64,000 bases of DNA from a virus: positions 1 through 64,000 of the IMG/VR virus record IMGVR_UViG_3300034093_001036; one strand, 5' to 3'. The position numbers and the translations under genes were made by a program. Of the stretch, positions 2,691 to 38,660 are shown one piece after another. A model generated the notes under the pieces. It made no database searches and was not told the DNA's origin. It saw nothing but the letters and a program-made list of their open reading frames with translations. Position 1 is the stretch's first letter. Every line of letters starts with the position of its first letter.

Positions 2691-4112
2691 CTATCTTATC
2701 ACTAAATTGTTATAAGTTTTTTGCCATTTTTCTATATCATTTTCATCATTTAGTAGTGGCTGTCCTTTAATATTAAGGCTTGTATTTAATAGTATTGGAA
2801 CACCAGTTTCAATATAAAACTTATTAAGAACTCTCCATAACCCACGATGTTGATCTTTATTTACAGTTTGAACTCTTGAGGTTCCATCAGCATGAACTAC
2901 AGATGGTATTTTATCTGGCTGAAGACACTTAACTGTATATTGCATATAAGGGCTTGCAAAATCCATATCAAACCACTTAGACGCACACTCTTCCATAACT
3001 ACTGGAGCAAATGGTCTAAACAACTCTCTTTGTTTAATTAAATTAACTTTATCTTTTATATTTGGATCTCTTGGGTCAGCAAGAATGCTTCGATTGCCCA
3101 ATGCTCTTGGACCGTATTCTGCTCTGCCTGTTGCTACTGCTACGATTCCATCTTTTAATATACCGTCCACAATTTGCTGAACAGGATACTCTCCTCCAAG
3201 ATCATAGCCAAGATACGGAGTCTTCCAGTCAAGGTGCTTTCCGTACAAGGCTGCTGCTGCACCTAAAGAACTACCAGCATCTCCTGGGTTAGGCATGATC
3301 CAAATCATATCAAAAATATTCCATAGCAATGTATTTGCTGAAGAGTTAAGGGCACAACCACCCATAAATACTAAGTTCTTTTTACCAGTAAGGGACTTTG
3401 CCATACGCATAAACTGATTTAATCTTTGCTCATACACTACTTGTACTGCTGCAGCAATATCAAACCTATCTTGCTCTGTAATTATCATTCCCCAGTCATT
3501 AATTCCTTTATGAAAATTATATTTTTGTTTATCGTATGAAGGAAAATATTCATCAACCTCTTTGTAGTAACGCTTCCAGTCACCATAGGCAGCCATTCCC
3601 ATCATAATGTATTCTTCTTGGTTTGGCATAAGTCCAATAAGTTGTGTAAAAGCAGAATAAAATAGTCCAAAACTAACTGGATAGTTTTGCTTATACTTAA
3701 GTTTAATCTTGTCGCCCTCACCAACCCAAATAGTTGAAGTGTTATATTCTCCTATTGCATCTAATACAACAATTACAGCATCGTTAAATGCGCTTGTGTA
3801 GTATCCTGCTGCTGCATGAGAGTAGTGATGCTTAAAGTAGTGTACTGGAACATCTAAAGGAATGTTTGGCTTCCAGTCTGCTGCGCCACCCTTTAACATT
3901 ATTCTAGATCTTTTAAGCCAAGGCTTCTCATAGTAAGCAATGTAGTCTGGTGTTCCATAGTTTAATGCATCTAAGATAATATCTTTGTTGTTATACCAAT
4001 CATTCTTTTGTTTACTATATCTTTCTGCATGTCCCGCAAAAAGTATTTCTCCATCTTTAATTAAAGATACAGATGCGTCGTGGGAAGTTTCGTTAATTCC
4101 TAAAATTATCAT
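2691..4112 (-). CDS. Carbamoyltransferase, NodU/CmcH/TobZ family
   Basis: SHDASVSL, HHYSHAAA, DAIGE, MGMAAYG, GGCALN, PGDAGSSLG, EYGPRALGNRSIL, RPFAP, HADGTSRVQTV and LNTSLN motifs. Confidence 0.95.
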   Translation of the reverse strand: MIILGINETSHDASVSLIKDGEILFAGHAERYSKQKNDWYNNKDIILDALNYGTPDYIAYYEKPWLKRSRIMLKGGAADWKPNIPLDVPVHYFKHHYSHAAAGYYTSAFNDAVIVVLDAIGEYNTSTIWVGEGDKIKLKYKQNYPVSFGLFYSAFTQLIGLMPNQEEYIMMGMAAYGDWKRYYKEVDEYFPSYDKQKYNFHKGINDWGMIITEQDRFDIAAAVQVVYEQRLNQFMRMAKSLTGKKNLVFMGGCALNSSANTLLWNIFDMIWIMPNPGDAGSSLGAAAALYGKHLDWKTPYLGYDLGGEYPVQQIVDGILKDGIVAVATGRAEYGPRALGNRSILADPRDPNIKDKVNLIKQRELFRPFAPVVMEECASKWFDMDFASPYMQYTVKCLQPDKIPSVVHADGTSRVQTVNKDQHRGLWRVLNKFYIETGVPILLNTSLNIKGQPLLNDENDIEKWQKTYNNLVIR

Positions 4113-23234: not shown

Positions 23235-23752
23235 TAATTACTCCCACTATGTATTGTATCATCAAAAATACTTCCACTGTTCAATATATTAATTTCTGCT
23301 TGCTCGCCCTCTTTGACATTAACTAAGTTAATAACTAGGTCTCCGCTTATCGGATCTATATAGACTGACTTACAGTTTGGCACTTTAACTCCATCCACCA
23401 GATCATATCCTGTACCACAAACTGGTAGATGGTCAAATATAGATAAAGATAAAGACTTAAGATACGAATCAGATGCCTGCAGTCTTAAAACATTATTTGG
23501 ATTGTATTGTAGATATAAATCTGTTAAATTTTTAATCGGGGTATAAATAACCTTTTGCCCATTTACCAGGTCATGCCTAGATATAGTGGCAAGTTCATAT
23601 CCTCCAATATCCTCAAATATAAGGTCTGTCATTATTTCAATAGACATGGCCTCATCATTTAAAAGAATTAAATCTGGAGTAGCAATTTTTACTGAGTTAT
23701 CTTGAGATGCGCTTTCTGGATATGGAAGATTTGCTGTTGCGCTTGTTGTCAT
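23234..23752 (-). CDS. Probable minor tail protein
   Basis: Position in the tail operon, TAATG coupling. Confidence 0.5.
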   Translation of the reverse strand: MTTSATANLPYPESASQDNSVKIATPDLILLNDEAMSIEIMTDLIFEDIGGYELATISRHDLVNGQKVIYTPIKNLTDLYLQYNPNNVLRLQASDSYLKSLSLSIFDHLPVCGTGYDLVDGVKVPNCKSVYIDPISGDLVINLVNVKEGEQAEINILNSGSIFDDTIHSGSN

Positions 23753-26700
23753 TATAAAACCTCACTTAAAAATACTGTCATGTCTGGACCACTTGGACCT
23801 CTTGAAAAATCAATATTATATACAACAAATCTGCTCAATGCATTTGATGCCATACTTATTCCATTTTCTTGATAGTCTAAACTTACTATGTCACCAAGTT
23901 GAATTGTAGGTATTGCAAATATTTTAACTCCGATAGACTTTCTTGGCTTTGATGTTTTTTCAACCATCCACTTCATTAAGTTTGAGGCTTCATCTTGTGA
24001 TTGAATATATGGAGTAGTTAGTGAAAAATCTTTTTTCCCGTAAGTCATTCTACTTAATTTTATATCTTGATAATCTTGTTTAAATTTAAAAGGATTTGAA
24101 ATTAATTTATCTGCAACAAACTGTGGGCTTGATTCAAGAGTATTCTTATTAAAATATTCATCAACTGTTAGGTTGTTATCTGACTCCTGTGTAAAAGTAA
24201 TTCCCTGAATTCTTAAATAGTTCCCACTTGTTTCGTCTAGACTAAGCGCAGTGTCTGTTGCATTAAATATCATAAACTCAGCACCGTATGATCCTGCTCT
24301 AAAACCAGAAACGACATACCCCTTTATTTTATTAAATGTTGGAGAAATTTTTGCAGTTAATGCTGGATAAGCCTTATCATATTTAAAATTAAACACTGCT
24401 GCTTCTCTCATAATGCTGCCAAACTCTTCAAAATATATGTCATACTTTGGAGGTTCTGACGAACCAATTCCAGAAAGATATGTATTTTGTATTAAACCAC
24501 TAATGGCATACTTTCTAAAAGACTCATTAGCGTCAATTTCAGAATCTCCGAATACAGAATTTACTGGTGCGCCCAAAGAAAATGATGTGTTTTGAGAATA
24601 GTTATTGCATAGTGCATAAACATTTTCAAACATTGCTCTTGAAGATCCTCTTGTAAATAATGCTATGTTAGAATATATAGGAAGTGGATCATTATCATCT
24701 ACTGTTTTTATTAGTTTGCCGTTAATGTATAAGTAGAATCTTCTTGTCTTTCCTATGTCTTCATATTCTACTGCTAAATCATATACCGTTGGATTTTCCT
24801 CAGCAAAAACTCTTGACTGCCCAGTAAATCTTCCATCATCAACAGTAATTGTAGCAAGACCATCCCAAAGGCCAACAGGAATTGCCTTACTATTATCAGA
24901 TTTTATTTTGTAGAAAAAAACATTACTAACGCTTTGTCTATCTGTTTCTGACAAATTACCTAGTCCAAGTGCTGCTATCTCAAAATAATATCCTACATTT
25001 GTTGTTGGATTTAACATTACTGCAATTCCAGCAGAACCACCCGCAACGTTAATATTTTTATCTGGTGTAGAACCATTTACAACATAGTAAGTTGAGGATC
25101 CATTGGTTGTCTGACCACGGTCTTCATTGCTTTCAATCTTACCAATAATTCTTAGTCTTGTTCCAAAGTGTTTATACTTTTTTCCTTCTAATGATTTATG
25201 AACATATGAAATAAAATTTCTTGGCTTTTCTTTAGTAGCAAAGTTTGGGCCAGTCAAAGAAAGTGCTGATGATTGAACTGAGCCTGGGACTTGTTGAGTA
25301 TTTGTGGTTATCTCTCCCACAACAGAAGTTGACAGAAAGTTTTTAATAATTCCGCTTCTAGATGAAGTTCTTGCTAAAGCATCAGAAGATATTCCAGAGT
25401 CAGTTAATTTTCCAGATAATGCAACGGTGGTTGCAGGTAAAGTTAAATCTTTTTGAAACAAATACTCTGATGACATGTAACAACCTTTAACATTGTCATC
25501 TGATTTCCAGTAATCAGCAATTCCAGCATTGTGTGCAACAACAGTAGTTCCAAATTGTCCACGACCATGCTTTTGAACTTCTCCATTTTGTAATCTAATA
25601 ACACCAGATTGCTCAAAATATTTTGGTTCAGAATAAATTCTTACAAGGCCAGTTGGATATATCTTTCCATTGAATGGAAGTTTAGAAAAATAATTTTGAT
25701 AGTCTTCTGTAGAAGTTATCCAAACATTTCCAAAACCAGTAACGTTGTATTGAACTGCATCATATTTTATAATTTCTCCTTGTGAATAAAAATATCCATT
25801 ATATCTTGTAATCCAATACGCTGCTTCACCAAGACTAAATGTATTATTAATTACAATGTTATTTTTTACAATTGGCACATCTGCTAAAAGATTAGAGTTT
25901 AGTGGTATAGCGCTAAGAACATATGCAGACTGCTTGTTTACTTCGTTATTTATTGACTTTGTATTTTCTGTTCCAGACACTTCCCACAATAGAGCAGGCT
26001 TATAAGTGTAAAATCTTTCATCATCTAAGAGGCTTGCTTGTCTTAAAGAGCCAATAGATCTTTGTATATGTCTTGTTGTGTAATTAATTACTCCATCATT
26101 GTATACATTGTTTGTCTGGCTAGATACAGAAATCACATTTGCAAGTTTAGCATTTGCAAGTGTTTTATTTTTAATTTCATTATCTTGAAACAGATCGTTA
26201 GTTCCCCTAAGTTCAAAGGTTGTTGGTCTTTGTTCTTTTGTTGGCATAATATAGTCTTTGCTCATCATAACAAAGTTATTGTATTCATCAAAAAACATTG
26301 CAGTTTGAGTTGATACCGCTAAATCTTGAAGAATTTGTGCAACGCTGTTGTCTGGCCCAACAAAGAAATATGGAATTATTGTTTCTTTTTCATTTGCCAC
26401 TCTTCTAAATGTGTAATTAGAAAAACCAATATGGTCTAATAAAAGAGAAACAGCAGAACTTACAGATACTTCTGTCATTAATATTTGTGGTGCAGTTATT
26501 GATTCTAGATACCAATACATATCTCTTAAGGAAAGGGACACAGTTTTATTCATAAGATCCTGCTTGGGAAATGAATCGGCATATAGTGTTTTAATTGGAA
26601 CCCAGTAATCCCAGCCTGCAACATCAACAATTACTTCATAAAACTTAAACTGAACATGTCTATTTATATATTTTGCTATAATACTTGACTGATTGTTTTC

Positions 26701-28044
26701 ATTAAATGCTTGATCATAATCAAATATATTAATATTTCCATTAGATGCAATTAACTGCCCAACTGGTAAACCACTTAGCCCAAGATCTGATGCACTCTTA
26801 TTAATTGAATAGTCTAAAGTTTTATCAGATACATTTAAAACAAGTCTTGGAGATATTTCTATAAGGTCAAAGGTTGAGTCTTTTACATTCATTGAGTCAA
26901 CGACAATTCTAATTCCAGAGATGTATTCAAATTCTCGGTACTGTTCTTTTCCATCTAAGGATTTAGTAAATACATTTGGAGATGTAGCATCTACAACAAA
27001 GTTTGTAAGTCTGTCTACTGTCTCATCTTGGATATACCAACCATACTTTGGGGTTATGATTGTATAATCTGTACCGTTCCAAATATAAAACTTGCCTATA
27101 TCGTTTTCATTTTCTTTAATAAGATAAGCATATCCAACTACAGACTGCTCGGGAAGCAAAGAAATACTTGAGTATACTTCTGCAAAAACAAAATTTGCTT
27201 TCCATTCATCTGGAACAATTAGTCCATAGGCTATTTCAACATATCCATCACTCTTGATGACGGATGATCCGTCTGCTCTTCGTATTGCTGGATTAAAAGA
27301 TATAACATCCTGCCAGTTTGAATCTTTTAGGAATTGAATTTTCCATCTAGTTGGAACCTTTTGATTTAACTCTCCAAAGAATGGATCTGAAAATGCTCCA
27401 GTTGGGGACGAAAAGGGGCCTAGATTTTCTGTTCCAGTATGAGTTTGCATCTTAACAACAACTCTATTGGCTGGAATCTTTTCTTTATAGACAACAAAAG
27501 GACAGGCATCTTCTATAGAGTTTTGAGAACCTCTTACCTTTGAGGCAATCCCGTATTCTTGACCAGACTCTGTTCTGTATGAAGTCCAGTACTTAAACTT
27601 ATCATTTTTATCTGGCATATAGTATCTTGGTCTGTCGGCCATGACTAGATTGGGGTGGTGCAGTTTCCCGTTCTCAAAGAACACTGCCTTGTTAATTCCA
27701 GACCTTGGTCTAAACTGATTAAAACATTCTTCTAAAGAATAAAGAGTTTTTAACTTTTCCTTCTTTGTCAAAAATGTTGTTGGAATGTCGTCATTGTCAA
27801 ATGTTCCATCTACTAAAACATCTGCATCTGTCGCTCCTGTATAAAAATTTCCAGCATCATTAATATCAAAACTTGTTGGAAGTGAAGCATAAAGAGAAGA
27901 AGACTCTGTTGGTCTATATCTATAGTTACCAATATGTTTTATATTGGTTGGTATGTTCATGTTCCATTCTGCTGTTATTATTGACTTGTTTCGTACCGTC
28001 GGAGAAGTCTCTAAAAATGTTTGCAGTTCTTTATCTTCAAACAT
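23752..28044 (-). CDS. Large minor tail or tail-tip hub protein, 1430 aa
   Basis: Second gene after TMP. Hub-like LQDLAVSTQTAMFFDEYN and PTIQLGDIVSL motifs. Confidence 0.7.
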   Translation of the reverse strand: MFEDKELQTFLETSPTVRNKSIITAEWNMNIPTNIKHIGNYRYRPTESSSLYASLPTSFDINDAGNFYTGATDADVLVDGTFDNDDIPTTFLTKKEKLKTLYSLEECFNQFRPRSGINKAVFFENGKLHHPNLVMADRPRYYMPDKNDKFKYWTSYRTESGQEYGIASKVRGSQNSIEDACPFVVYKEKIPANRVVVKMQTHTGTENLGPFSSPTGAFSDPFFGELNQKVPTRWKIQFLKDSNWQDVISFNPAIRRADGSSVIKSDGYVEIAYGLIVPDEWKANFVFAEVYSSISLLPEQSVVGYAYLIKENENDIGKFYIWNGTDYTIITPKYGWYIQDETVDRLTNFVVDATSPNVFTKSLDGKEQYREFEYISGIRIVVDSMNVKDSTFDLIEISPRLVLNVSDKTLDYSINKSASDLGLSGLPVGQLIASNGNINIFDYDQAFNENNQSSIIAKYINRHVQFKFYEVIVDVAGWDYWVPIKTLYADSFPKQDLMNKTVSLSLRDMYWYLESITAPQILMTEVSVSSAVSLLLDHIGFSNYTFRRVANEKETIIPYFFVGPDNSVAQILQDLAVSTQTAMFFDEYNNFVMMSKDYIMPTKEQRPTTFELRGTNDLFQDNEIKNKTLANAKLANVISVSSQTNNVYNDGVINYTTRHIQRSIGSLRQASLLDDERFYTYKPALLWEVSGTENTKSINNEVNKQSAYVLSAIPLNSNLLADVPIVKNNIVINNTFSLGEAAYWITRYNGYFYSQGEIIKYDAVQYNVTGFGNVWITSTEDYQNYFSKLPFNGKIYPTGLVRIYSEPKYFEQSGVIRLQNGEVQKHGRGQFGTTVVAHNAGIADYWKSDDNVKGCYMSSEYLFQKDLTLPATTVALSGKLTDSGISSDALARTSSRSGIIKNFLSTSVVGEITTNTQQVPGSVQSSALSLTGPNFATKEKPRNFISYVHKSLEGKKYKHFGTRLRIIGKIESNEDRGQTTNGSSTYYVVNGSTPDKNINVAGGSAGIAVMLNPTTNVGYYFEIAALGLGNLSETDRQSVSNVFFYKIKSDNSKAIPVGLWDGLATITVDDGRFTGQSRVFAEENPTVYDLAVEYEDIGKTRRFYLYINGKLIKTVDDNDPLPIYSNIALFTRGSSRAMFENVYALCNNYSQNTSFSLGAPVNSVFGDSEIDANESFRKYAISGLIQNTYLSGIGSSEPPKYDIYFEEFGSIMREAAVFNFKYDKAYPALTAKISPTFNKIKGYVVSGFRAGSYGAEFMIFNATDTALSLDETSGNYLRIQGITFTQESDNNLTVDEYFNKNTLESSPQFVADKLISNPFKFKQDYQDIKLSRMTYGKKDFSLTTPYIQSQDEASNLMKWMVEKTSKPRKSIGVKIFAIPTIQLGDIVSLDYQENGISMASNALSRFVVYNIDFSRGPSGPDMTVFLSEVL

Positions 28045-28679
28045 TATACTTCTTCCAAAGTTATTGAGACGTTCCAGTAATCAAACTTAGTTCCTCTTTT
28101 TTCAACAGAATATGAAAAATCACTAATAAACATTTCTATAAGTTGATTGTATTGTCCAAGGTGGTCGTATGGTTCTGGTGTTCCACTAAATATACCCTTT
28201 CTATCGTAGGCAAGAAATACCCAAAAAGATCCTTTATGTGAGTCATACCACTCAAGCATATCTGCTCCACCTGCGCCTCCATCAGTTGTATAGGATACAT
28301 ATGGAGAAACTCCAGTAGCAGTATCAAAACTTGGAATGTTTGCATGGGATCTAGACGGAATTAAATTCCAACTTGTACTTAGTGTTATTTTATCTGCAAT
28401 GTGATATGATCTCATGCGACCATTAATCATTCTTTCACGCTTTTCAATTCTTTCTTCTGAAAAATCAAGGGGCTGTCTATTATCATCAGTAATAAACAAG
28501 AATTGATCTAGAAGGGTTTGATCTTCAACATCTTCTGGGTCTACTCCAACTTCATACCCATAGGGAATGTACAAACCATCTTTAAGAGTGCCAGAGTTTT
28601 CAGACCACAGCATACCGCTTGGTCTGTTATATTTTTTACGACCCTGAACATAGGTGACTCTTGGATCAATTTCTGGCAT
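28044..28679 (-). CDS. Distal tail-like minor tail protein
   Basis: Immediately after TMP, ends WNVSITLEEV. Confidence 0.6.
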   Translation of the reverse strand: MPEIDPRVTYVQGRKKYNRPSGMLWSENSGTLKDGLYIPYGYEVGVDPEDVEDQTLLDQFLFITDDNRQPLDFSEERIEKRERMINGRMRSYHIADKITLSTSWNLIPSRSHANIPSFDTATGVSPYVSYTTDGGAGGADMLEWYDSHKGSFWVFLAYDRKGIFSGTPEPYDHLGQYNQLIEMFISDFSYSVEKRGTKFDYWNVSITLEEV

Positions 28680-31600
28680 TTAATGACACCCCTCTAATTC
28701 TTCTATCATCAACTTGTTTAATTGTTGACATTACTGCTTGTGCAATTTCATTTGGATTAGCATTTGTTTTTGCATTAACAGTTAATGTATATGTATTATT
28801 ATACACTGCTCCACCAACTGATTCGCCATTATTTATTTTTCTCATAGTATCTACGCCATAAGTATCTACAGCATACTTACTCATTATAAATTCTCCTGGA
28901 GTTAACATTGCTGGAACTGTATCTGTGCCTTTAGCAAATCCACCAAGAGAGAACATTTTAGGAATTATTCCACCATTCATTCTTCCTACTCTGCCCTTAG
29001 CATTTATTGCTGCTTGCTCTGCTGCTAGATCTGCTGCTTCTTTTGCCTTAAATCTAGAAAGATTAGATGCTTGATTTTGTACACTAATTGCTTCTGCTGC
29101 AGCAATTGCTGCTGCTTTTATTTGTGATGCAATAGACAGGGCCCCGATTATTCCATTTTCCATTGCTGCATTAGCGCTTGGGTGAAATGCTGCTGCTGCA
29201 ATAGCAGGTGCATAATCTGCAGCCTTTTCTAATGCTGCTTTATTAATATCTTCTGCTTTTTTATTTCCTTCAGTTGATGCTTTTGGATCTGGAACAAATG
29301 GACCTGGACCTTGTGTTGCAGTTGTACCAGAGTTGCTTGAAGTATTCCCTGGTTGAGCCTGATATGCTGCAATAAGTTTTGCTTGAGTCTCTAGTGCAAG
29401 TTTCATAGAATCAACAAATGCAGCACTCTTAATTAATGCAAGGTCTACTTGATTTTTAATTGCTTCCCAAGCATCTTTTGTTTTGCCAAGAACCGTAAGT
29501 CCTTCTATATCTTTGTCTAATATTATTTGTCTTAAACGAATAAACTCTTGTGCTGGTTCTAGTTTCTCTTCTTCAATTTTAAATATTTTATCTTGAAGAT
29601 CTTTGATTTCTTTTTCAAGTTCTAGTCTAGTTTTTCCACCCTGAGTTTTTACTCTAGACAATTCATATTCTCTAGATTTCTCTACAGCATCTTTTTGTTT
29701 TGTTACTGCATCTGCTGCTGCTTGGGCTCTCATATCCTGTACGGCCTTTGCTGCTGCTGAAATATCTCCAGAGGTTAGGGCCTCAGCAAGAGTTAGTTGA
29801 CCCTTTTGCTGATTAGAAATAGAAGAGTTTAACTTTTCTACTTCATCTAAAGCCTTAATTCTTTCATCATACTTATCATTAATTTTTTGTTCTTGCTCTT
29901 CAATACCCTTTAGTGCTGCTTCTTTGTCATCTATTTCATATTGAATTGCTGCAATTGCATTTTGTGCCTCTTTAATTACTGCATTTTGTGATTTTGTATC
30001 TATTTTAAATTGTATATTTAGGGCTGTCTCCTGAACATCAAAGGCCTGCATAGCATTGCTAAAACCTTTATCAAATAAGCCTTGCATGAATTCAACGGTA
30101 GACTTTAATTGATTTAGCCTTTCAGTAAAATCGTCAATTAAATCATTTAACTCTCCCTGGGCTTTAACAATAATTGCTGTTGGTGCTCCGTTTGCTATTA
30201 ACTTATTTAATCTCGATTGTTGTGAAGCAATTTGGCTTTCCATTGATTGTAGGTTTTCATCGGATGAAATTGCAAAAGCATCTTCTGCCCCATACTTTGA
30301 TCTTAGTCTTGCTTCTTGAATTGTGTTTTTCTTAAATTGTGCGATATCTGTTTTTACTCCTTGAATTGCCGCTGACTTTTCTTGTGCTGCAGTTAAAAGT
30401 TTATAGTTAGAAATCAAAGTTCTAAGGCTTTTATCATTTACTCCATTGGCAATGGCTGCTGCCAAAGTTTTATCAGAAATTAATTGGTATGCCTCTGCTA
30501 CTGGAACTCCAAGGTTTGCCAACTTATTAAATGCAGTTGATTGATTTTCAATAGCCTTGAAGTCTGCTTCCATGCTAGACTTCCAGTCACCCATAGTTAT
30601 TGAGTTTAATGCTTCCTGAATGTTTTTAGCATCTTCTTTTAGTCCAACAATATTTTTCTTGTTGTCAAACTTAAACAATGAGTTCTTTTTCTGTTCATAT
30701 ACCTTTGGATCCATGCCAACGATTAGTTCGATAAAGTCTTGGCTTGTACCTAAGCCTCTTAGATCATTTTCTATACCGCTAAATACATCAATAGTTTTGT
30801 TACCACCAAACAGTTTATCTAGTGCCTTACGAGAAGCACCCCAGCCTTCTGTGACCTTGATCTGGTTCATTCGTACATCTCTTAGTTTCTTTACTAAGTC
30901 ATCTAGTGGTGAGGACTGGACTTTGTTTCCATCGGCAGGAGTGTTTCCTCCTACTGGAGCCTTTACTCCTACTGATAAGTTATCTGTAACGGCTTTGTAT
31001 CCTTGGGCTTCTGTGTATTTTTGTATTTTATAAGAAAGACTTCCTGTTACTCCTTGTCCACCTCTTGGTGCAGGCTCCTTAAGCCACGCCTTATAGTCTT
31101 CGCTTGCTTCAATTTTTGGCTCTGGAATATTAACTAATGTTGAAATTGTAGTTGTATAAACCTTTTGCTGATCTTCAGTTAATGTGTTAAAGTATGCTTC
31201 ATCAAATGCTGCTGTTCCCTTAACCTCTGGCATAATCTCATAAACAATTTTTGCAGTTAAATCTTTGCTACCTTCAATTGCGTCTAGCATTTTATTTAAT
31301 GATGCGTATGCCTCTTGGCTTTCCTTGCTTTTGTCAGTATAGTAACTGACCATAACATCTGATGGGATAACTGTATTGAGACTGTTTAACTTAATTATAT
31401 TTTTTGTAAAATCAAGAGCATCTGAGTCTTTTTCAAATGCTTCTACCCTGGTTATAAATTTTGTTTGAACTGTCTTGTTAATGGTACCCTTTGCATCAAG
31501 AATATTCTGTGCTGCTACACCTATTGACTCAGATGTTGCACCACTAAACTTTGTAATAATTTTCATCATCACTGGGGCCATGTCTTTATTGTCTGTTGCC

Positions 31601-34600
31601 ATTTGCAAAAGACTTCTGAATACTGCTGGAGGAATATCTCCACTTGCCATCTTTGCTTGAATTAAAAACTCTTGTCCACTATCGATAAGACCATCTTTTC
31701 TTAGATTTTTTGATTGCTGATTTACAGTATCTATATATGCTAACTGGTTAGGATCATTTTTGTATTTTGCAGTTGTGGCTTTTTTCATTCCAGACATCAT
31801 TGCTTCTTGAAGTCCACCAGCACTATTGTATTGAGATACTATGTCTCCTTGCATTTTTGCTTGGGCTGCAGTTAGTTGATCTCTTTTTCCAACTTTGCCT
31901 TTTTCTTTATCTCCTAAATACTCTTTCTCTAGTTCTAACGCCTCATTAATTTTACCCTGCAGCCTTAACTCTTCAATTTTTTTCTGATAATACATATCAA
32001 GAGAGTCAAGCATTTGTTTATTTTGTTCCATTGCAATTTTAGCATCTACCGCATAGGTTGCTCCAAGAACTGCTGCCTCTTTTGCATATTTCTTTGAGGC
32101 AAAGTATCCACCAATTGCTCCTACTGCTGTTCCAATTCCAGCACCTATAATTGCTCCTGCTAGAGTTCCTGCAGGTCCTAGTGCTGTTCCAATTCCAGCA
32201 CCTGCTGCTGCTCCACCAAGAGCCGAAGCGCCTATGCCTAGTCCTTGTGTTACTTTTTGTCCAGCAAGTTGTTGTAAAACACCAGCATTTTTTACATTAT
32301 CAGCACTAGTTTTCATATTCTTTGCATTTGCATTTACCATATTTATTCTAACATTTAATGGATCGTTAACAAGGTTTTCTCCGTTTGGTCCAAGCAAACT
32401 TTCTAATTGAGCAATAACCTTTATACCAATAGACATATCTCCTGCTTGTCTAGCAGCATTCATAGCCAAACTTTTTGCCTGTGACATATCCATAGCACCA
32501 GACATAATTGCTGCAGAAAGTTGGCCACCTAAATCTTTCACTGCAACATTTCCTTTACCGTCAGCGTTCTGTTTTGAAATTCTTGCAGTCAAAGCCTTTC
32601 CTTCTGCTGTTTGAGCATATGCTTCTCCATAAGTAGTCTTACCAGTTGCTGCGCCAAGCATTGCAAAAGAATTTTTTCTTCTTAGGTCCATCTGTTCTGA
32701 GGCTGTTGTCTTACCACCAAATTTTGCTATAGTCTGTAATGCAGATGTAGATCCTTTAAACTTTTCACCCTCTTCTAAAACCTGATCTGCTGCTTTATCA
32801 AATGACATTCTCAAGGCAGCAAATGATCCAACTGTTGCAAGAAGTCCTACTGCTAAGGCTGAAGCAGGACTTTTTAACATTGGAATTATCATAGACAATC
32901 CCATAAGTGGCATCATTAATTTTTGTGAGATTTCTCCAACTTTACCTGGTACCATAGAACCAATCATTGCTGCACCTGCTGCCATTCCGACACCGCCAGC
33001 AATTCCCATACCACCCTTACCTGCTACTTTTGCATTTTGTCTATTATTTTTAAGTCTTTGCAATTTAGTGGTTTCAAATTTACCATTTGCCATTGAAGGT
33101 CCCATTGGCGTTCCAGAAACTGAAGGTGCTGGTGTAAACTGTGCTGCTGCTCTTTCACTAATAATTCTTTTTTGATATGCTACAGAGTTTGCTAACTTAG
33201 TTCTTCTTTCCATTTGTCTACGCATAGACTTGGCATCTGCATCCATTGGCCCCATGCCGTATAGTTTAGTTCTTGATGCTGCCGTCTTTGCTTGTGTTTT
33301 TGCTTCTGCCCTTTGGCGCTTTTCCATTTGTCTACGTAAAGATTTAGCATCTGCATCTATTGATCCCGTTCCATACAAAGCAGTCCTTGATGATGCTGCT
33401 GCGGATTGAGATATTGTTTTTCCAATAGTGGCACCAGCAGCCTTGGCTTTTGCAACAGATCCTTTTACTCCCGCAAGAATTGCGTTTACAGTTGCATTCT
33501 TTGATCCTGGGGCATTTGCTTTTCCAACAATTCTTCCCTTGGGGCCTTGACGAACCGATGAAGCAACACTCGCTGGAGCAAGTCTTGTATCCTTTATGCT
33601 GCCAGAGTCTGATTTTAACTTTCCGTTATTTGGCTTTGTTGGTATTGGCTTTAGGTTACCCTTTTTGTCTTCAAGTACTTCATCTGGCTTTACCAAAATT
33701 GAACGATGGAAGTTATAAACCTTTTTCCAGTCTGCGTTTAAACCAGCCTGAAGTCTCTTATACATATCTTCATAAACTTTTTTGGCTGGATCTCCAGCAT
33801 CAAGTTTAAAACCATCTATAGTTTTTCTTAATTTTGGAAGAGTTCTATTAATCTCATCTTTTATTTTTCTTTCATATTCATCTGCAGACTGAATATTTTG
33901 TGGAATATCAGCAGTGGCATTTCCAAACCAGAAAGGAGAGTTGTTGGCATTTGGACCTGAAACACCTTTAAGATTGTGCATAGCAATTGCTTCCATAGAT
34001 GGAAGTCCTGCTGAATAAGATCTTGTTCCAGAGGCTTTATCAAATACTCCTGCTGCTCCAACATCAGTTACAACATTGCCTCCAAGGTTGCCTTTCTTAA
34101 GATCTTTGTCTCCACGAAGGCTTGATGCTACTAATTGCTTAATATATTCTTTTTCAGTAAAAGTTTTTGGCATTGTGTTTGGATCAAATCTTGAATCATA
34201 TGGAGATTCCAAAACAATAATCTTTCTTTTTTTCTTAACATCTGGTTCATCAATATCTGTAGGATCAATCATTGTTTTGATTGTTTGTCTTGGTGCTAGT
34301 AAGCCCTGTGCTCTAGCAATCTCAGTTCCTCTTTTTTCTGCTATAGCGTCTAACTCACTTAGCATTGGTTTTACAAATACTTTTGACCCATCTGGTTTTG
34401 TAAATACTCCGCCAATGGTTGACATAAAATTACTTCTACCAGAACTCTGTGTTTCTTGAACACCAAAGTTTGTAGGCTTCTTTGCTCCAAAGGCAGTTTG
34501 AGATGCCTCTATTGCAACTGCTCTTAGTTTTTCTTTGTGCTCCATTGCTTTTTCAAGATCAAGCAATTGTGGGGCTGATGGCGGTGCTGCAACCTTTGCT

Positions 34601-37533
34601 TTCTTTGCTGCCTTTGTGCCTTGAGAAATTACAGGGGTTGTTCCTGCTCCAAGTCTGTTCATATTAACTACGGTTCCTTCTGGAACTTGAACTCCATGGT
34701 ATGTGCCTGCTGGAAGAGTTATAGTTGATGATCCAGTTACTACTCTTTTTTTACTATTAACTCTTTCATCAATGCTGTAGTCTAAGATTAAACCTTGTCT
34801 TTTTGCCTCATCAAGAATTTTTCTACTTTCATCAGGTGTAGTTCCTAATCCCTTACCCATATTAAATCTATAGTCTGTTGCATACAGTCCTTGAGATTTT
34901 ACATAGCCTGGGTCGTTTGGACTTATTATTTTTGGAATTTCTTTCTTATATAAATTGTCAACTATTGAATCATTTATAAATGGGCTTTTAGATTCTTGAA
35001 TTGACTTTAAGAATGCATTATCTAGCGCTTGTGCCTGTACTGCAGACATTCCAGATGGAGACCATTTGCCTGCTCCACCCTTAATCCATTCATCTATAAA
35101 CTGTTGCTTAGGTACTCCACCAGTTAGGCTAGGCATTGCTTTATTCATCCACTCAGGGAAGTTGAACATAAGACTGTGCTTTGTTGTTGTTACTGGTGGC
35201 AAACCTTGTGATATTAGAACCTGTTCCATAGTTATAAGTTTTAACTTTTGATCGGGAGACATATTAGGATTGCTCTTAATAATGTCTGATATTAGTCTTG
35301 GCTCGCTGCGTCCGCCTACGTGTGTTTCATTAATTGCAACTGATTTAGCATCTGTTGTTGCTGCTACTTCAGGAGCAAATGCTAATCCTTGAACTCTTCC
35401 GCCTGCAACCATGTGTGCAATGGCTGGTCTATTTGCTGGATCCTGTGCTGATTGTTGAGGGATTACTGCTTCACCAGGAGTTAGGTCTGCGTTTACGCTA
35501 TCTTTATTTCCAGTTCCTGGAACGCTTGTTGTTCCTTTACCATATTTTTTAGGTGTAGGCAAGCGCTTTCCAGCACTGGGACCCGTAAATCCTATTTGTG
35601 CTGCAATGGCTCTTCTGTATGCATTTGCCAACATGTTAACTGCTGCTGTTTCAGAAGTAAAGGTTTGTCTTAATCTTTGATGAACTTGATCAAGTGATGC
35701 TGCAACTGCTGATGCCTCTAACTGTTCTTTAGTTAAATAGTTTGTCTGCTCTCCTAATATTTGACTTGATTGACCCGTTCTGTTGTACATAGATTTTAAT
35801 CCTGCAAACATTTTAATTATATTAGCAACAGCGTTTGCAATCAAACCAAATCCCATTAAAAGAACTGGTCCAACACCAGCAAGAGCAACTGTAAGAATAG
35901 TTAAGAATTTTTTAGTACCATCTCCTAAGTTATTAAACTTGTCAAGAATTTTCCCAACAAACTCAACAATAGGGGTTAATGCTTTTAAGAATTGTTCTCC
36001 TACTGGAGCAATAGCCAATTTTAAATCTTCCATTGATTTTTTAAATTTGTATGTTGTTGTATTCTGAATTTTATCCAATTCTCGTTGTGACAAGATTGCA
36101 AGTTCTTCTGTAGTTGCTTTTGTTAATGATAAGACTCTCTGTGCTTGTGTACCCTGGGTTGTTACGTTTTGAAACAGTGTGGAAAGTCTTGAAAACTGGA
36201 ACTTACCAAATAGTTGTTCAATAGCACGAGCACGGTTAAGTGGGTCAAGAGTATCAAGTGCTTGTGCGAACCCAACAACAGTTGCTTTAATGTCTCCTTG
36301 GTTGGCTTCAACAATTCCTTTAATATTTACGCCAAGTTCTCCAAGAAACTTGCTTGCCTTTGTTGATGGATTAATTAATGATGCAAGACCAGACTTAAGT
36401 GCGTTAGCGCCTTCGGATGCATTGATTCCACCTTCTTTCATTGCTGTAAGGAAAAATGCTAAGTCTTCAACGTTTCCACCAAGTTGCTTAACAACTGGTC
36501 CAGCCTTTGGAATTGCTATTGTTAAATCTTCAATAGATACTACAGTTTGGTTTTCAACTGCGTTAAGGAAATCAATTTTGTTTGCAAGATCTTCTGCTGC
36601 AACGCCAAAAGCGTTAGTTACAGAAATTGTTGTCTCTAATGCCTGCGTTTGTTCTACTCCGCCAAGAACTGCAAGCCTTGTTGCCTGTACAACTTGTGCA
36701 ACTAATTCTGCACCCATCTTGCCCATTGCTGCAGCATCTGCAGCCATTTTCATTGTGTCTTCTATTGCAACGCCATACTTAGTATATTCTGTTGCAAGTT
36801 TTTGAATTTGCTTAACCATTGCATCAGTTTCTGCTTGTGTTGTAAACATTTCTCCATACACACGCTTAAATCTAATTGCCTGCTCTTCAAGTTTCATGAA
36901 TGTTTTTGAAGCAACTGTACCAAGCATTGCAAGTGGAACAGTAAAACCAACCATTAACTGACGTCCTGCCCACTGAGTATTCTTACCAAAGTTTAGGAGA
37001 TTGGTTGATCCTTGTCTTAATAATTGATTAAGTAGTTGTTGTCTCTGTGCAGCAATGGCTGTTTGTGTGCCCAGATTTTTCATATCAAGCGTTAGAGGTC
37101 TTACCGCAATTGCTTGTAGTGCTCCATTGGCACCTCTGCCCATTTTTACATACTGGGTCTGTATATCTTTTACACGCTCTCGTGCAACTTTATTTAATGT
37201 TTCAAATTCAGATCTAAACAGTCTTCCAAAAGTTTTTGTTGCTGCTCCAGTATATCTAAAATATTCTCTAGATGTTAACTTGTTTCTTTCTAAAGCATTA
37301 GTAAAAGACTCTGTACTTGATGTTACTGTTCGCATAGATGCTTGGAATTTTCCAGTAGCATTTATGCTGTTCATCAAGTTCTGTGCTTGATTTGCTGCTA
37401 CCGCTGAGGCTGCGGTACCAGACTTTGCCATTTGTGTATGGAAGGCTGATATTTGACGTTGTAGAAGTTTTAGACTTGCTAAAGCATCAGACGTATCAAT
37501 ATTTACATGAATATTGGATTCTACATCAGCCAT
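28666..37533 (-). CDS. Tape measure protein, 2955 aa, with internal cargo domains
   Basis: TP901-type core (...EGANALKS...IEQLFGK), hydrophobic G/A segments, coiled coils, C-terminal GTDTVPAMLTPGEF. Follows the tail chaperones. Confidence 0.93.
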   Translation of the reverse strand: MADVESNIHVNIDTSDALASLKLLQRQISAFHTQMAKSGTAASAVAANQAQNLMNSINATGKFQASMRTVTSSTESFTNALERNKLTSREYFRYTGAATKTFGRLFRSEFETLNKVARERVKDIQTQYVKMGRGANGALQAIAVRPLTLDMKNLGTQTAIAAQRQQLLNQLLRQGSTNLLNFGKNTQWAGRQLMVGFTVPLAMLGTVASKTFMKLEEQAIRFKRVYGEMFTTQAETDAMVKQIQKLATEYTKYGVAIEDTMKMAADAAAMGKMGAELVAQVVQATRLAVLGGVEQTQALETTISVTNAFGVAAEDLANKIDFLNAVENQTVVSIEDLTIAIPKAGPVVKQLGGNVEDLAFFLTAMKEGGINASEGANALKSGLASLINPSTKASKFLGELGVNIKGIVEANQGDIKATVVGFAQALDTLDPLNRARAIEQLFGKFQFSRLSTLFQNVTTQGTQAQRVLSLTKATTEELAILSQRELDKIQNTTTYKFKKSMEDLKLAIAPVGEQFLKALTPIVEFVGKILDKFNNLGDGTKKFLTILTVALAGVGPVLLMGFGLIANAVANIIKMFAGLKSMYNRTGQSSQILGEQTNYLTKEQLEASAVAASLDQVHQRLRQTFTSETAAVNMLANAYRRAIAAQIGFTGPSAGKRLPTPKKYGKGTTSVPGTGNKDSVNADLTPGEAVIPQQSAQDPANRPAIAHMVAGGRVQGLAFAPEVAATTDAKSVAINETHVGGRSEPRLISDIIKSNPNMSPDQKLKLITMEQVLISQGLPPVTTTKHSLMFNFPEWMNKAMPSLTGGVPKQQFIDEWIKGGAGKWSPSGMSAVQAQALDNAFLKSIQESKSPFINDSIVDNLYKKEIPKIISPNDPGYVKSQGLYATDYRFNMGKGLGTTPDESRKILDEAKRQGLILDYSIDERVNSKKRVVTGSSTITLPAGTYHGVQVPEGTVVNMNRLGAGTTPVISQGTKAAKKAKVAAPPSAPQLLDLEKAMEHKEKLRAVAIEASQTAFGAKKPTNFGVQETQSSGRSNFMSTIGGVFTKPDGSKVFVKPMLSELDAIAEKRGTEIARAQGLLAPRQTIKTMIDPTDIDEPDVKKKRKIIVLESPYDSRFDPNTMPKTFTEKEYIKQLVASSLRGDKDLKKGNLGGNVVTDVGAAGVFDKASGTRSYSAGLPSMEAIAMHNLKGVSGPNANNSPFWFGNATADIPQNIQSADEYERKIKDEINRTLPKLRKTIDGFKLDAGDPAKKVYEDMYKRLQAGLNADWKKVYNFHRSILVKPDEVLEDKKGNLKPIPTKPNNGKLKSDSGSIKDTRLAPASVASSVRQGPKGRIVGKANAPGSKNATVNAILAGVKGSVAKAKAAGATIGKTISQSAAASSRTALYGTGSIDADAKSLRRQMEKRQRAEAKTQAKTAASRTKLYGMGPMDADAKSMRRQMERRTKLANSVAYQKRIISERAAAQFTPAPSVSGTPMGPSMANGKFETTKLQRLKNNRQNAKVAGKGGMGIAGGVGMAAGAAMIGSMVPGKVGEISQKLMMPLMGLSMIIPMLKSPASALAVGLLATVGSFAALRMSFDKAADQVLEEGEKFKGSTSALQTIAKFGGKTTASEQMDLRRKNSFAMLGAATGKTTYGEAYAQTAEGKALTARISKQNADGKGNVAVKDLGGQLSAAIMSGAMDMSQAKSLAMNAARQAGDMSIGIKVIAQLESLLGPNGENLVNDPLNVRINMVNANAKNMKTSADNVKNAGVLQQLAGQKVTQGLGIGASALGGAAAGAGIGTALGPAGTLAGAIIGAGIGTAVGAIGGYFASKKYAKEAAVLGATYAVDAKIAMEQNKQMLDSLDMYYQKKIEELRLQGKINEALELEKEYLGDKEKGKVGKRDQLTAAQAKMQGDIVSQYNSAGGLQEAMMSGMKKATTAKYKNDPNQLAYIDTVNQQSKNLRKDGLIDSGQEFLIQAKMASGDIPPAVFRSLLQMATDNKDMAPVMMKIITKFSGATSESIGVAAQNILDAKGTINKTVQTKFITRVEAFEKDSDALDFTKNIIKLNSLNTVIPSDVMVSYYTDKSKESQEAYASLNKMLDAIEGSKDLTAKIVYEIMPEVKGTAAFDEAYFNTLTEDQQKVYTTTISTLVNIPEPKIEASEDYKAWLKEPAPRGGQGVTGSLSYKIQKYTEAQGYKAVTDNLSVGVKAPVGGNTPADGNKVQSSPLDDLVKKLRDVRMNQIKVTEGWGASRKALDKLFGGNKTIDVFSGIENDLRGLGTSQDFIELIVGMDPKVYEQKKNSLFKFDNKKNIVGLKEDAKNIQEALNSITMGDWKSSMEADFKAIENQSTAFNKLANLGVPVAEAYQLISDKTLAAAIANGVNDKSLRTLISNYKLLTAAQEKSAAIQGVKTDIAQFKKNTIQEARLRSKYGAEDAFAISSDENLQSMESQIASQQSRLNKLIANGAPTAIIVKAQGELNDLIDDFTERLNQLKSTVEFMQGLFDKGFSNAMQAFDVQETALNIQFKIDTKSQNAVIKEAQNAIAAIQYEIDDKEAALKGIEEQEQKINDKYDERIKALDEVEKLNSSISNQQKGQLTLAEALTSGDISAAAKAVQDMRAQAAADAVTKQKDAVEKSREYELSRVKTQGGKTRLELEKEIKDLQDKIFKIEEEKLEPAQEFIRLRQIILDKDIEGLTVLGKTKDAWEAIKNQVDLALIKSAAFVDSMKLALETQAKLIAAYQAQPGNTSSNSGTTATQGPGPFVPDPKASTEGNKKAEDINKAALEKAADYAPAIAAAAFHPSANAAMENGIIGALSIASQIKAAAIAAAEAISVQNQASNLSRFKAKEAADLAAEQAAINAKGRVGRMNGGIIPKMFSLGGFAKGTDTVPAMLTPGEFIMSKYAVDTYGVDTMRKINNGESVGGAVYNNTYTLTVNAKTNANPNEIAQAVMSTIKQVDDRRIRGVSLNARN

Positions 37534-37551: not shown

Positions 37552-37875
37552 TTAGTTATTTGCAAGGTTGCCAAGTAGTGATGCGTCAGAAAGTTTAATT
37601 CCTGATGCCTCTTCGACAATCTTGTATACTGTTGGAAGATCTAGATTTTCTTCTAGGGCTTCCTTGTCTTCTGCCAATTCTGGCTTGTATTGTTTCATTG
37701 CGATTTGAACACAGTCCATTAACAAATCCATAGACTTTTCGTTATCTTCTGCGACCTTTGCAATGTCTTCAAACTTCTTCATAAACGGACGAAGTAGAGA
37801 AATCTTAAGTGGTCTTACCTTGATCTTTGTTCCATCGATCAGAGTTACTGTCTTTTCTTCAGTGGCGATTGCCAT
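37552..37875 (-). CDS. Tail assembly chaperone, short gpG-like form
   Basis: Between major tail and TMP. Own TGGTATAAT and AAGGAGG. Paralog of the N-terminal half of 37931..38611. Confidence 0.75.
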   Translation of the reverse strand: MAIATEEKTVTLIDGTKIKVRPLKISLLRPFMKKFEDIAKVAEDNEKSMDLLMDCVQIAMKQYKPELAEDKEALEENLDLPTVYKIVEEASGIKLSDASLLGNLANN

Positions 37876-37930
37876 TTATTCCTCCTTATAAGGTTTAGTT
37901 AATTATACCATAGCGCAGGCTTATTTCTGG

Positions 37931-38611
37931 CTATTCGGAAACCTCATAATCAATACCCATGCCAATGCCAAACCCTGCTCTTTCAGCATTTACTCCTTGT
38001 AGGGCCAGAATATCATTTCCATTTCCTGTTGCACCCTTGCTAAATACTCTAGCCTTCATGTCTTCCCATTCATTACCGCTACCAGAATTTTTATCTAAAT
38101 CTACACCTTGCATTGCTGCAGCAAACTTTTTATCACTGTAGTCTAATTCTCTTTTTATCTTTAGTGTGGCTGTTAGTTCTTGCATAGACATTGATGATTC
38201 TAACTGATCATAGTCTTTCCATATACCGATCAAAAAAACCTCTGACTCTAGTTTTGCCAAGTCTAAGGTTTCCCATGTTGATCCACTGTCAACTGCCTGA
38301 TTTTTAACAGTGTCTTCTGACTTCTCATTAATTTTGATTCCCGCTGCAACATCAATAACATCATAGATAGTTGGTAAGTCTAGGCTGTCTTCTAAATCTT
38401 CAATAGTTTTAATTGATGGGCAATATTGTTGCATTGCAATAAGAGCGCATTGAGCCAAAATAGATATTGATTCATCATCACTTTTTGCTTCTTTAATTTT
38501 TTCAAAGGTTTCTAAAAATTCTCTTAAGTATTTTATTTTTAATGGGGCAGCAATAATAACTCTATCATCTACTAGTGATATTTTTTTTGTTTCATATATT
38601 TTTGTTGCCAT
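37931..38611 (-). CDS. Tail assembly chaperone, long gpGT-like fusion
   Basis: Start reassigned to MATKIY, 6 nt after TGGTATACT. G-like N-domain plus a ~125-aa extension. Confidence 0.7.
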   Translation of the reverse strand: MATKIYETKKISLVDDRVIIAAPLKIKYLREFLETFEKIKEAKSDDESISILAQCALIAMQQYCPSIKTIEDLEDSLDLPTIYDVIDVAAGIKINEKSEDTVKNQAVDSGSTWETLDLAKLESEVFLIGIWKDYDQLESSMSMQELTATLKIKRELDYSDKKFAAAMQGVDLDKNSGSGNEWEDMKARVFSKGATGNGNDILALQGVNAERAGFGIGMGIDYEVSE

Positions 38612-38625
38612 TATATAAGTATACC

Positions 38626-38660
38626 AAACAGAAAGGCCCAACCCCGAAGGATTGAGCCTC
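38626..38660 (-). terminator. Rho-independent terminator with UUCG loop
   Basis: AGGCTCAATCC-TTCG-GGGTTGGGCCT followed by TTCTGTTT, after the major tail gene. Confidence 0.85.

Follow-up and report, generated by a model that had tools for sequence, protein, structure and literature searches.

A putative protein-kinase-like domain as an exchangeable module of the giant tape measure protein of an uncultured lake phage

The tape measure protein (TMP) of an uncultured phage, represented by IMG/VR virus record IMGVR_UViG_3300034093_001036, contains a domain of predicted protein-kinase-like (PKL) fold that is probably a genuine, active phosphotransferase. The window analyzed here consists of positions 1 to 64,000 of this record, which measures 88,579 bases and is estimated to be 81% complete; the domain occupies approximately amino acids (aa) 1025-1277 of the 2955-aa TMP (Table 1). 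TMPs occupy the tail tube and are the first to exit the virion upon infection. We consider it highly probable that the domain is a real kinase-fold enzyme module of the TMP and would give slightly less than an even chance to its acting as a virion-delivered effector at entry. The statement as a whole, namely, that the TMP carries as cargo a kinase-fold phosphotransferase that is delivered by the virion and acts on a host target, or on the TMP or entry complex, before phage gene expression, we hold at a probability of about 0.5.

Judged by its Pfam and PHROG matches and its canonical gene position, the 2955-aa open reading frame (ORF) is a TP901-type TMP. The Pfam family PhageMin_Tail (PF10145) matches aa 244-443 (E = 1.5e-24; cut-off 33.2 bits), and nine PHROG tape measure families match the protein, the best being phrog_10030 (E = 4.6e-100 over aa 38-727). 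The gene order runs from portal, capsid, and Ig-domain tail protein genes upstream through two chaperone-like genes to the TMP gene, followed by distal and minor tail genes.

Predicted fold and conservation of the domain

The domain was modeled with AlphaFold2 from an alignment of 42 sequences that are less than 60% identical to each other and were picked from 128 full-length homologous segments (predicted local distance difference test score [pLDDT] 92.6; predicted template modeling score [pTM] 0.91). The model shows the two lobes of the PKL fold, with an N-lobe formed by a β-sheet and one helix and a helical C-lobe, and its elements follow kinase order: N-terminal strands, a strand ending in Lys, a helix bearing Glu, two strands, a long helix, the Asp-x4-Asn loop, short strands, Asp-x-Gly, and the helical lobe. 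In P0002 numbering, strands are found at residues 33-36 and 42-47, with K1055 ending the latter; E1066 lies in the helix at residues 51-66; the Asp-x4-Asn loop comes directly after the long helix at residues 118-131; and TDVG stands just after the short strands at residues 141-146. As judged from this secondary structure, the Lys strand is paired with the Glu helix, and the loop is followed by the putative metal-binding Asp.

Comparison of the model with solved structures points in the same direction. A Foldseek search against the PDB returned H. pylori CtkA as the top match (E = 7.6e-4; probability 0.99), and all 46 rows shown were kinase entries, with low TM-scores (<=0.37); all 50 rows of an unbiased VIA-align search were kinase-fold entries as well. 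The closest structural neighbor of the domain is CotH (11.7; 221 aligned, rmsd 4.5), followed by PI4KIIalpha (10.1), MavQ and Fam20C (both 9.2), CtkA (9.0), Vps34 (8.9), HipT (8.5), HipA (8.3), and actin-fragmin kinase (8.2). The modeled structure thus supports assignment of the domain to the atypical part of the PKL superfamily that comprises CotH, PI4KII, Fam20, CtkA, HipA, and PI3K. A first-pass annotation, made from the nucleotide letters and their ORFs, had proposed an atypical kinase of the HipA/PI3K type; the kinase fold and the atypical group are borne out by the model, whereas among solved structures CotH and PI4KIIalpha come closer to the domain than HipA does.

The motif strings on which that annotation relied, within positions 33700-34440 (aa 1032-1278), namely, GGVFTKPDGSKVFVKP, AIAE, GDKDLKKGN, and TDVG, were found where it had placed them and in the same order, and together span aa 1041-1159. 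The motif string by itself would be weak evidence, because a loose regular expression for the motif order (Gly-Gly/Lys/Glu/Asp-x4-Asn/Asp-x-Gly) matches 70 of 2000 shuffles of the TMP as well as one other site in the actual sequence, at aa 740, that seems to be unrelated. The latter is a match of the regular expression only, and a second kinase-like domain at this site was rejected. The observation is raised above chance by two further findings, the predicted fold and the invariance of five residues in homologs; together with the structural neighbors, they contradict a fortuitous motif match, which was rejected accordingly.

When aa 1010-1290 were used as the query of a full HMMER scan covering 1.84 billion representative proteins, 154 matches were obtained at E <= 1e-3, including 118 at E <= 1e-30; in the alignment of the 128 full-length segments, the putative catalytic residues show little or no variation. 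Residues were counted across 267 homologous domain instances, using only those not truncated at a contig end at the residue in question. The Lys1055 and Glu1066 equivalents are kept in 247/247 and 251/251 instances, respectively, the putative catalytic Asp1144 in 261/262 (with one Val), and both Asn1149 and the putative metal-binding Asp1157 in 262/262. Gly1042 is kept in all 247 non-gap instances, D1142 in 255/262, and G1159 in 259/262. Thus, the Lys/Glu/Asp/Asn/Asp set picked out in the first-pass annotation is conserved throughout 247-262 instances with a single Asp exception; neither of the two outcomes that the annotation had named as refuting it, a predicted structure other than a kinase fold and a lack of conservation of these residues, was observed. 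The family consensus of the loop is GDKDLxxxN: the Asp and Asn of the loop originally read as DLKxxN stand, but the Lys of "DLK" (Lys1146) is not conserved across the family.

The kinase domain is under strong purifying selection. Six codon-based pairwise comparisons to IMG/VR relatives gave a ratio of nonsynonymous to synonymous substitution rates (dN/dS) of 0.085-0.18 for the domain, compared with 0.05-0.14 for the TMP core where diverged, 0.16-0.42 for the linker, and 0.16-0.45 for the part downstream of the kinase. Within the kinase-bearing set, which was selected by the kinase so that coverage there is given by construction, the domain is the best-conserved block after the core, with mean identity of 44-51% over aa 1001-1200 (its first two 100-aa windows), falling to 37% in the next one, versus 25-37% for most of the remainder.

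At the sequence level, the domain constitutes a family new to Pfam and PHROGs, of predicted kinase-like fold, because searches of Pfam, PHROGs, and PDB sequences do not detect it. A phmmer search of the domain against PDB sequences gave no matches at E <= 10. With the family profile, nine PDB matches at E <= 10 were obtained and read as noise, the best being a leucine-rich-repeat protein (E = 0.0099), with the "protein kinase C" rows corresponding to non-kinase chains of ~140 aa. Pfam yielded only Tup_N at E = 0.11 on the domain, and PHROGs yielded no families; across 42 family members, the Pfam scan produced a single, sub-threshold HipA_2 match (E = 0.013). ESM Atlas returned unnamed clusters for the domain, which we treat as a lead only.

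The domain is likewise set apart from the individual kinase families. The CotH Pfam model (PF08757) matched neither the domain nor any of the 42 members nor the whole phage record, in a scan whose control recovered the family in 4 of 14 named genomes. CotH of Bacillus cereus (PDB 5jda/5jd9) is 9% identical to the domain and is a free-standing spore-coat enzyme, whereas the domain is a module inside a 2955-aa tail protein. The PI3_PI4_kinase model (PF00454) had no Pfam match in the domain or the 42 members, and the loop has no His and does not conform to GDRHxxN; in addition to the missing loop His, the domain differs from PI4KIIalpha, MavQ, Vps34, and other lipid kinases of the PI3K/PI4K type in its shorter Asn-to-Asp spacing and in having no helical solenoid or palmitoylation region. 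Alignment of the family profile with E. coli K-12 HipA by hhalign gave a probability of 0.06%, and, unlike the toxin-type kinases HipA, HipT, and CtkA, the TMP domain is found without the HipA N-terminal domain and without an antitoxin gene context. The eukaryotic-type kinase model (PF00069) also had no Pfam match in the domain or the 42 members, and the Lys of the HRDLKxxN type is not conserved.

Table 1. Features of the TMP gene and its surroundings in the 64,000-nucleotide window
Feature	TMP residues	Coordinates	Strand	Remarks
TMP gene	2955 aa	28666..37533	minus	ORF list and translation
TP901-type TMP core	1-720	35374..37533	minus	PhageMin_Tail at aa 244-443 = 36205-36804
Hydrophobic stretch in TMP core	541-576	35806-35913	minus	Kyte-Doolittle
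Extra globular-looking insert between core and kinase (~210 aa)	~733-945	34699..35337	minus	common to 9/150 kinase-bearing representatives
Predicted kinase-fold domain	~1025-1277	33703..34461	minus	structured part of model
Gly-rich turn (G1041-G1042) and strand with invariant Lys1055	1041-1056	34366..34413	minus	GGVFTKPDGSKVFVKP; Lys1055 codon 34369-34371
AIAE, with Glu1066 at the αC position in the helix after the Lys strand	1063-1066	34336..34347	minus	Glu1066 codon 34336-34338
Putative catalytic-loop motif GDKDLKKGN	1141-1149	34087..34113	minus	DLKKGN = 34087-34104; Asp1144 34102-34104; Asn1149 34087-34089
TDVG, putative DFG equivalent with metal-binding Asp1157	1156-1159	34057..34068	minus	Asp1157 34063-34065
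Hydrophobic/glycine-zipper segments downstream of kinase	1556-1578 and 1789-1809	32107..32868	minus	Kyte-Doolittle
Two tail-assembly-chaperone-like genes, directly upstream of TMP		37552..38641	minus	both phrog_10504 (E = 1.8e-20 and 9e-20)
Distal and minor tail protein genes, directly downstream of TMP		23752..28679	minus	phrog_10359 minor tail protein, E = 4.1e-58

An exchangeable module behind the TMP core

In most homologs, the kinase starts at aa ~745-760, directly behind a core of ~720 aa. Among the 116 close TMPs, that is, those newly listed from the core search with a core at least 81% identical, 111 carry the kinase, and five (P0263, P0267, P0268, P0269, and P0272) do not. In these five TMPs, an unrelated stretch of ~370 aa occupies the place of the kinase, while the core (77-85% identical by BLASTP) and the C-terminal parts still align. 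A related TMP, P0237, has the Pfam family CTP_transf_like (cytidylyltransferase-like) between core and kinase, at aa 728-856 (27.7 bits versus a cut-off of 21), and a second, P0260, is assigned this family solely by the precomputed Pfam list. The cytidylyltransferase-like domain is a second ATP/NTP-using enzyme-like module in the same TMP slot.

Mosaicism was also observed. When locus L002 (positions 3001-3843) is compared with window positions 33664-34506, the kinase is 94-95% identical (dS 0.20), with the flanking TMP being ~100% identical (dS 0.007-0.07), which suggests recent recombination replacing just the kinase cassette; locus L012 displays the opposite pattern. The kinase-less TMPs, the cytidylyltransferase-like domain, and the mosaic loci answer in the affirmative the question raised in the first-pass annotation, namely, whether related TMPs swap the content of this slot. 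The presence, absence, and exchange of the putative kinase domain show it to be an accessory, cassette-like cargo module located right after the conserved TP901-type core.

The insert between core and kinase in the window TMP (Table 1) opens with a conserved T-H-V-G motif. No Pfam match was found in it, ESM Atlas returned only unnamed viral clusters (score 0.82; a lead only), and its dN/dS is 0.13-0.35 where diverged. Many of the close TMPs end in a LysM peptidoglycan-binding domain (e.g., P0173, aa 2918-2968, E = 1.9e-9), which the window TMP does not have. The sequence L-T-P-G-E occurs twice in the window TMP, at aa 684 (~35467-35481, minus strand), where the core gives way to the cargo region, and at aa 2877 (~28888-28902, minus strand), near the C terminus; 105 of the 150 kinase-bearing homologs have at least one L[TS]PGE.

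Proposed function and alternatives

The discussion of PMC13277306 describes the TMP as occupying the tail lumen, being expelled first at infection, and inserting into the envelope. Because the TMP leaves the virion first, the domain would be carried in the tail and released with the TMP. It might be stored in the tail in a non-native or compacted state and enter the host envelope or cytoplasm together with the TMP. After refolding there, it would draw on host ATP to phosphorylate a target of the host, the TMP, or the entry complex, ahead of the expression of any phage gene. We infer its delivery into the host, its activity, and its substrate from TMP biology, and the same holds for the role in host takeover or anti-defense that the first-pass annotation proposed.

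Several points weigh against such an effector. The five residues are placed in the kinase active site by motif order and secondary-structure position, that is, by topology only; the Asn-to-Asp spacing in the domain is 8 residues, shorter than the 13 found in PKA and PI3K; and the domain is absent from five of the 116 close TMPs. Several copies of a ~28-kDa domain, if folded, should be too bulky for the lumen of a siphovirus tail; the domain would have to be stored unfolded, or it might be removed by cleavage in the course of assembly. Furthermore, ATP is available only in the cytoplasm, and the arrival there of the middle part of the TMP is presumed. Finally, CotH and Fam20C phosphorylate structural or secreted proteins during assembly of the respective structures, which favors an alternative whereby the domain works inside the producer cell, with its supply of ATP, and, much like CotH acting on spore-coat proteins, would phosphorylate the TMP, the chaperones, tail-tube or other virion proteins, or else host proteins late in infection, to become a passenger in the virion or be trimmed off. 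We regard this assembly-time kinase as unlikely: it should be universal in the lineage, yet the five close TMPs and cultured relatives such as Streptomyces phage Tomas are without the domain; cassette exchange and the addition of a second enzyme-like domain look more like variable cargo than core morphogenesis; and a separate late gene would do without enlarging the TMP.

Less probable still is a lipid or small-molecule kinase that would phosphorylate a membrane or envelope component at the entry site, such as phosphatidylinositol, which is present in actinobacteria, and thereby reshape the membrane that surrounds the TMP channel. Known variations on the kinase fold include pseudokinases and enzymes that put it to other chemical use, such as AMPylation or glutamylation in SelO and SidJ. 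SidJ and the BIR2 pseudokinase are among the Foldseek rows, and one of the 262 homologs has Val at the catalytic Asp; nevertheless, a catalytically dead scaffold (a length spacer, plug, or binding module) or the use of ATP for other chemistry is very improbable, given that the five canonical phosphotransfer residues, with which a scaffold could dispense, show little or no variation across 247-262 instances, with dN/dS of ~0.1.

We also put forward, tentatively, a bolder version of the virion-delivered effector, in which phages of this abundant lake lineage would inject a ready-made TMP kinase that, within seconds of adsorption and ahead of phage gene expression, phosphorylates a protein or a membrane lipid of the host, disarming defense or preparing the entry site. 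The slot behind the core might then be a general, exchangeable "effector bay" accommodating kinase, cytidylyltransferase-like, and unknown modules, analogous to the effector domains of secretion-system substrates.

Distribution, lineage, and host

The kinase domain was found only inside giant TMPs of uncultured phages: 124 of 150 representatives are at least 1500 aa long, and a TMP core can be detected in 108 of these. A profile search limited to proteins of 138-506 aa retrieved only nine, all of them fragments; eight of these short matches lie on contigs of 915 to 2,770 bases, and the ninth (P0107), on an 11,243-base contig, matches from its residue 2 and also looks cut off. A tblastn search of the domain against 50,697 phage records identified no cultured phage with the domain, whereas IMG/VR yielded 26 related loci. 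Among genome contigs, 72 candidate stretches for prophage or host copies were obtained, none of which was confirmed by a method whose reach is limited to close relatives.

Eighteen lake-water metagenome runs with 18 study codes, from 2020 to 2024, contain the complete stretch; all are marked as possible sources of this DNA and are hence not independent support. Short contigs covering parts of 33142-35000 were present in two metatranscriptome runs, one (X19) with three contigs at >=95% identity and the other (X20) with five, mostly at 90-95% and representing relatives; they are not counted as proof of transcription, because DNA can occur in such libraries.

With a GC content of 36-41% and a DnaE-like polymerase 54.7% identical to that of Streptomyces phage BillNye, the phage looks like a low-GC lake relative of the large Streptomyces siphophages. 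We infer the host only from the similarity of this polymerase and of the TMP core (~30%) to those of Streptomyces phages; no member of the WhiB family turned up in the record of 88,579 bases, which is 81% complete. The core is the only part of the TMP shared with TMPs of cultured Streptomyces, Gordonia, and Staphylococcus phages, and among the 25 records listed, all from Streptomyces phages, the match is confined to aa ~7-702, with none covering 80% of the query. The TMP-core search gathered 5036 protein clusters at E <= 1e-20 and, given this number, the lineage is not rare.

Surroundings of the kinase domain and of the TMP gene

Hydrophobic segments, called by a Kyte-Doolittle window of 19 with a score of at least 1.6, flank the kinase domain on both sides (Table 1). 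The Pfam family Gly-zipper_Omp matches aa 1771-1814 weakly, below the cut-off (E = 0.0039). Of the two chaperone-like genes upstream of the TMP (37552-37875 and 37931-38641, minus strand), the longer one is extended at its C terminus by a part that matches phrog_10474. Because both match phrog_10504 and one has this additional part, they look like two separate genes rather than a frameshift pair.

Relation to known systems and implications

Enzymes known from TMPs are cell-wall hydrolases, which need no ATP, whereas the module described here has the fold of an ATP-dependent kinase. Phages inject a few enzymes from the head and make kinases after infection, as in the case of T7 gp0.7. The TMP of Streptomyces phage Tomas has the same gene order and position, has the PhageMin_Tail core in common with the window TMP (~30% identity over aa 16-697), and shares the principle of an enzyme riding in the TMP; in Tomas, this is a C-terminal Peptidase_M23, whereas the window TMP has no M23 and bears its kinase fold mid-protein. 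Virion proteins fused to effector enzymes are represented by the MuF polymorphic toxins with pyrophosphokinase domains (PMC12226406, available sections), and TMP-related effectors of contractile injection systems, such as Sle1, are described in the available sections of PMC13277306. In what these sections present, both share the concept of a structural or ejected phage-type protein with a variable enzymatic or effector domain, but neither concerns a PKL fold inside a phage TMP, the word "kinase" occurring 0 times in the sections of PMC13277306. A full-text literature search, outside whose coverage most subscription journals lie so that absence from print is not proven, found no paper on a kinase domain in a TMP, and the available portions of a jumbo-phage survey (PMC7824862) mention TMPs and kinase domains only in unrelated passages. 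What is new here is the enzyme class and the sequence family, both in a known type of carrier.

The kinase-bearing TMPs provide a natural series of presence, absence, and cassette exchange that can be used for experiments. If the proposed function is true, an ATP-dependent kinase in the tail protein that is first to leave the virion would represent a novel means of acting on the host ahead of the onset of transcription.

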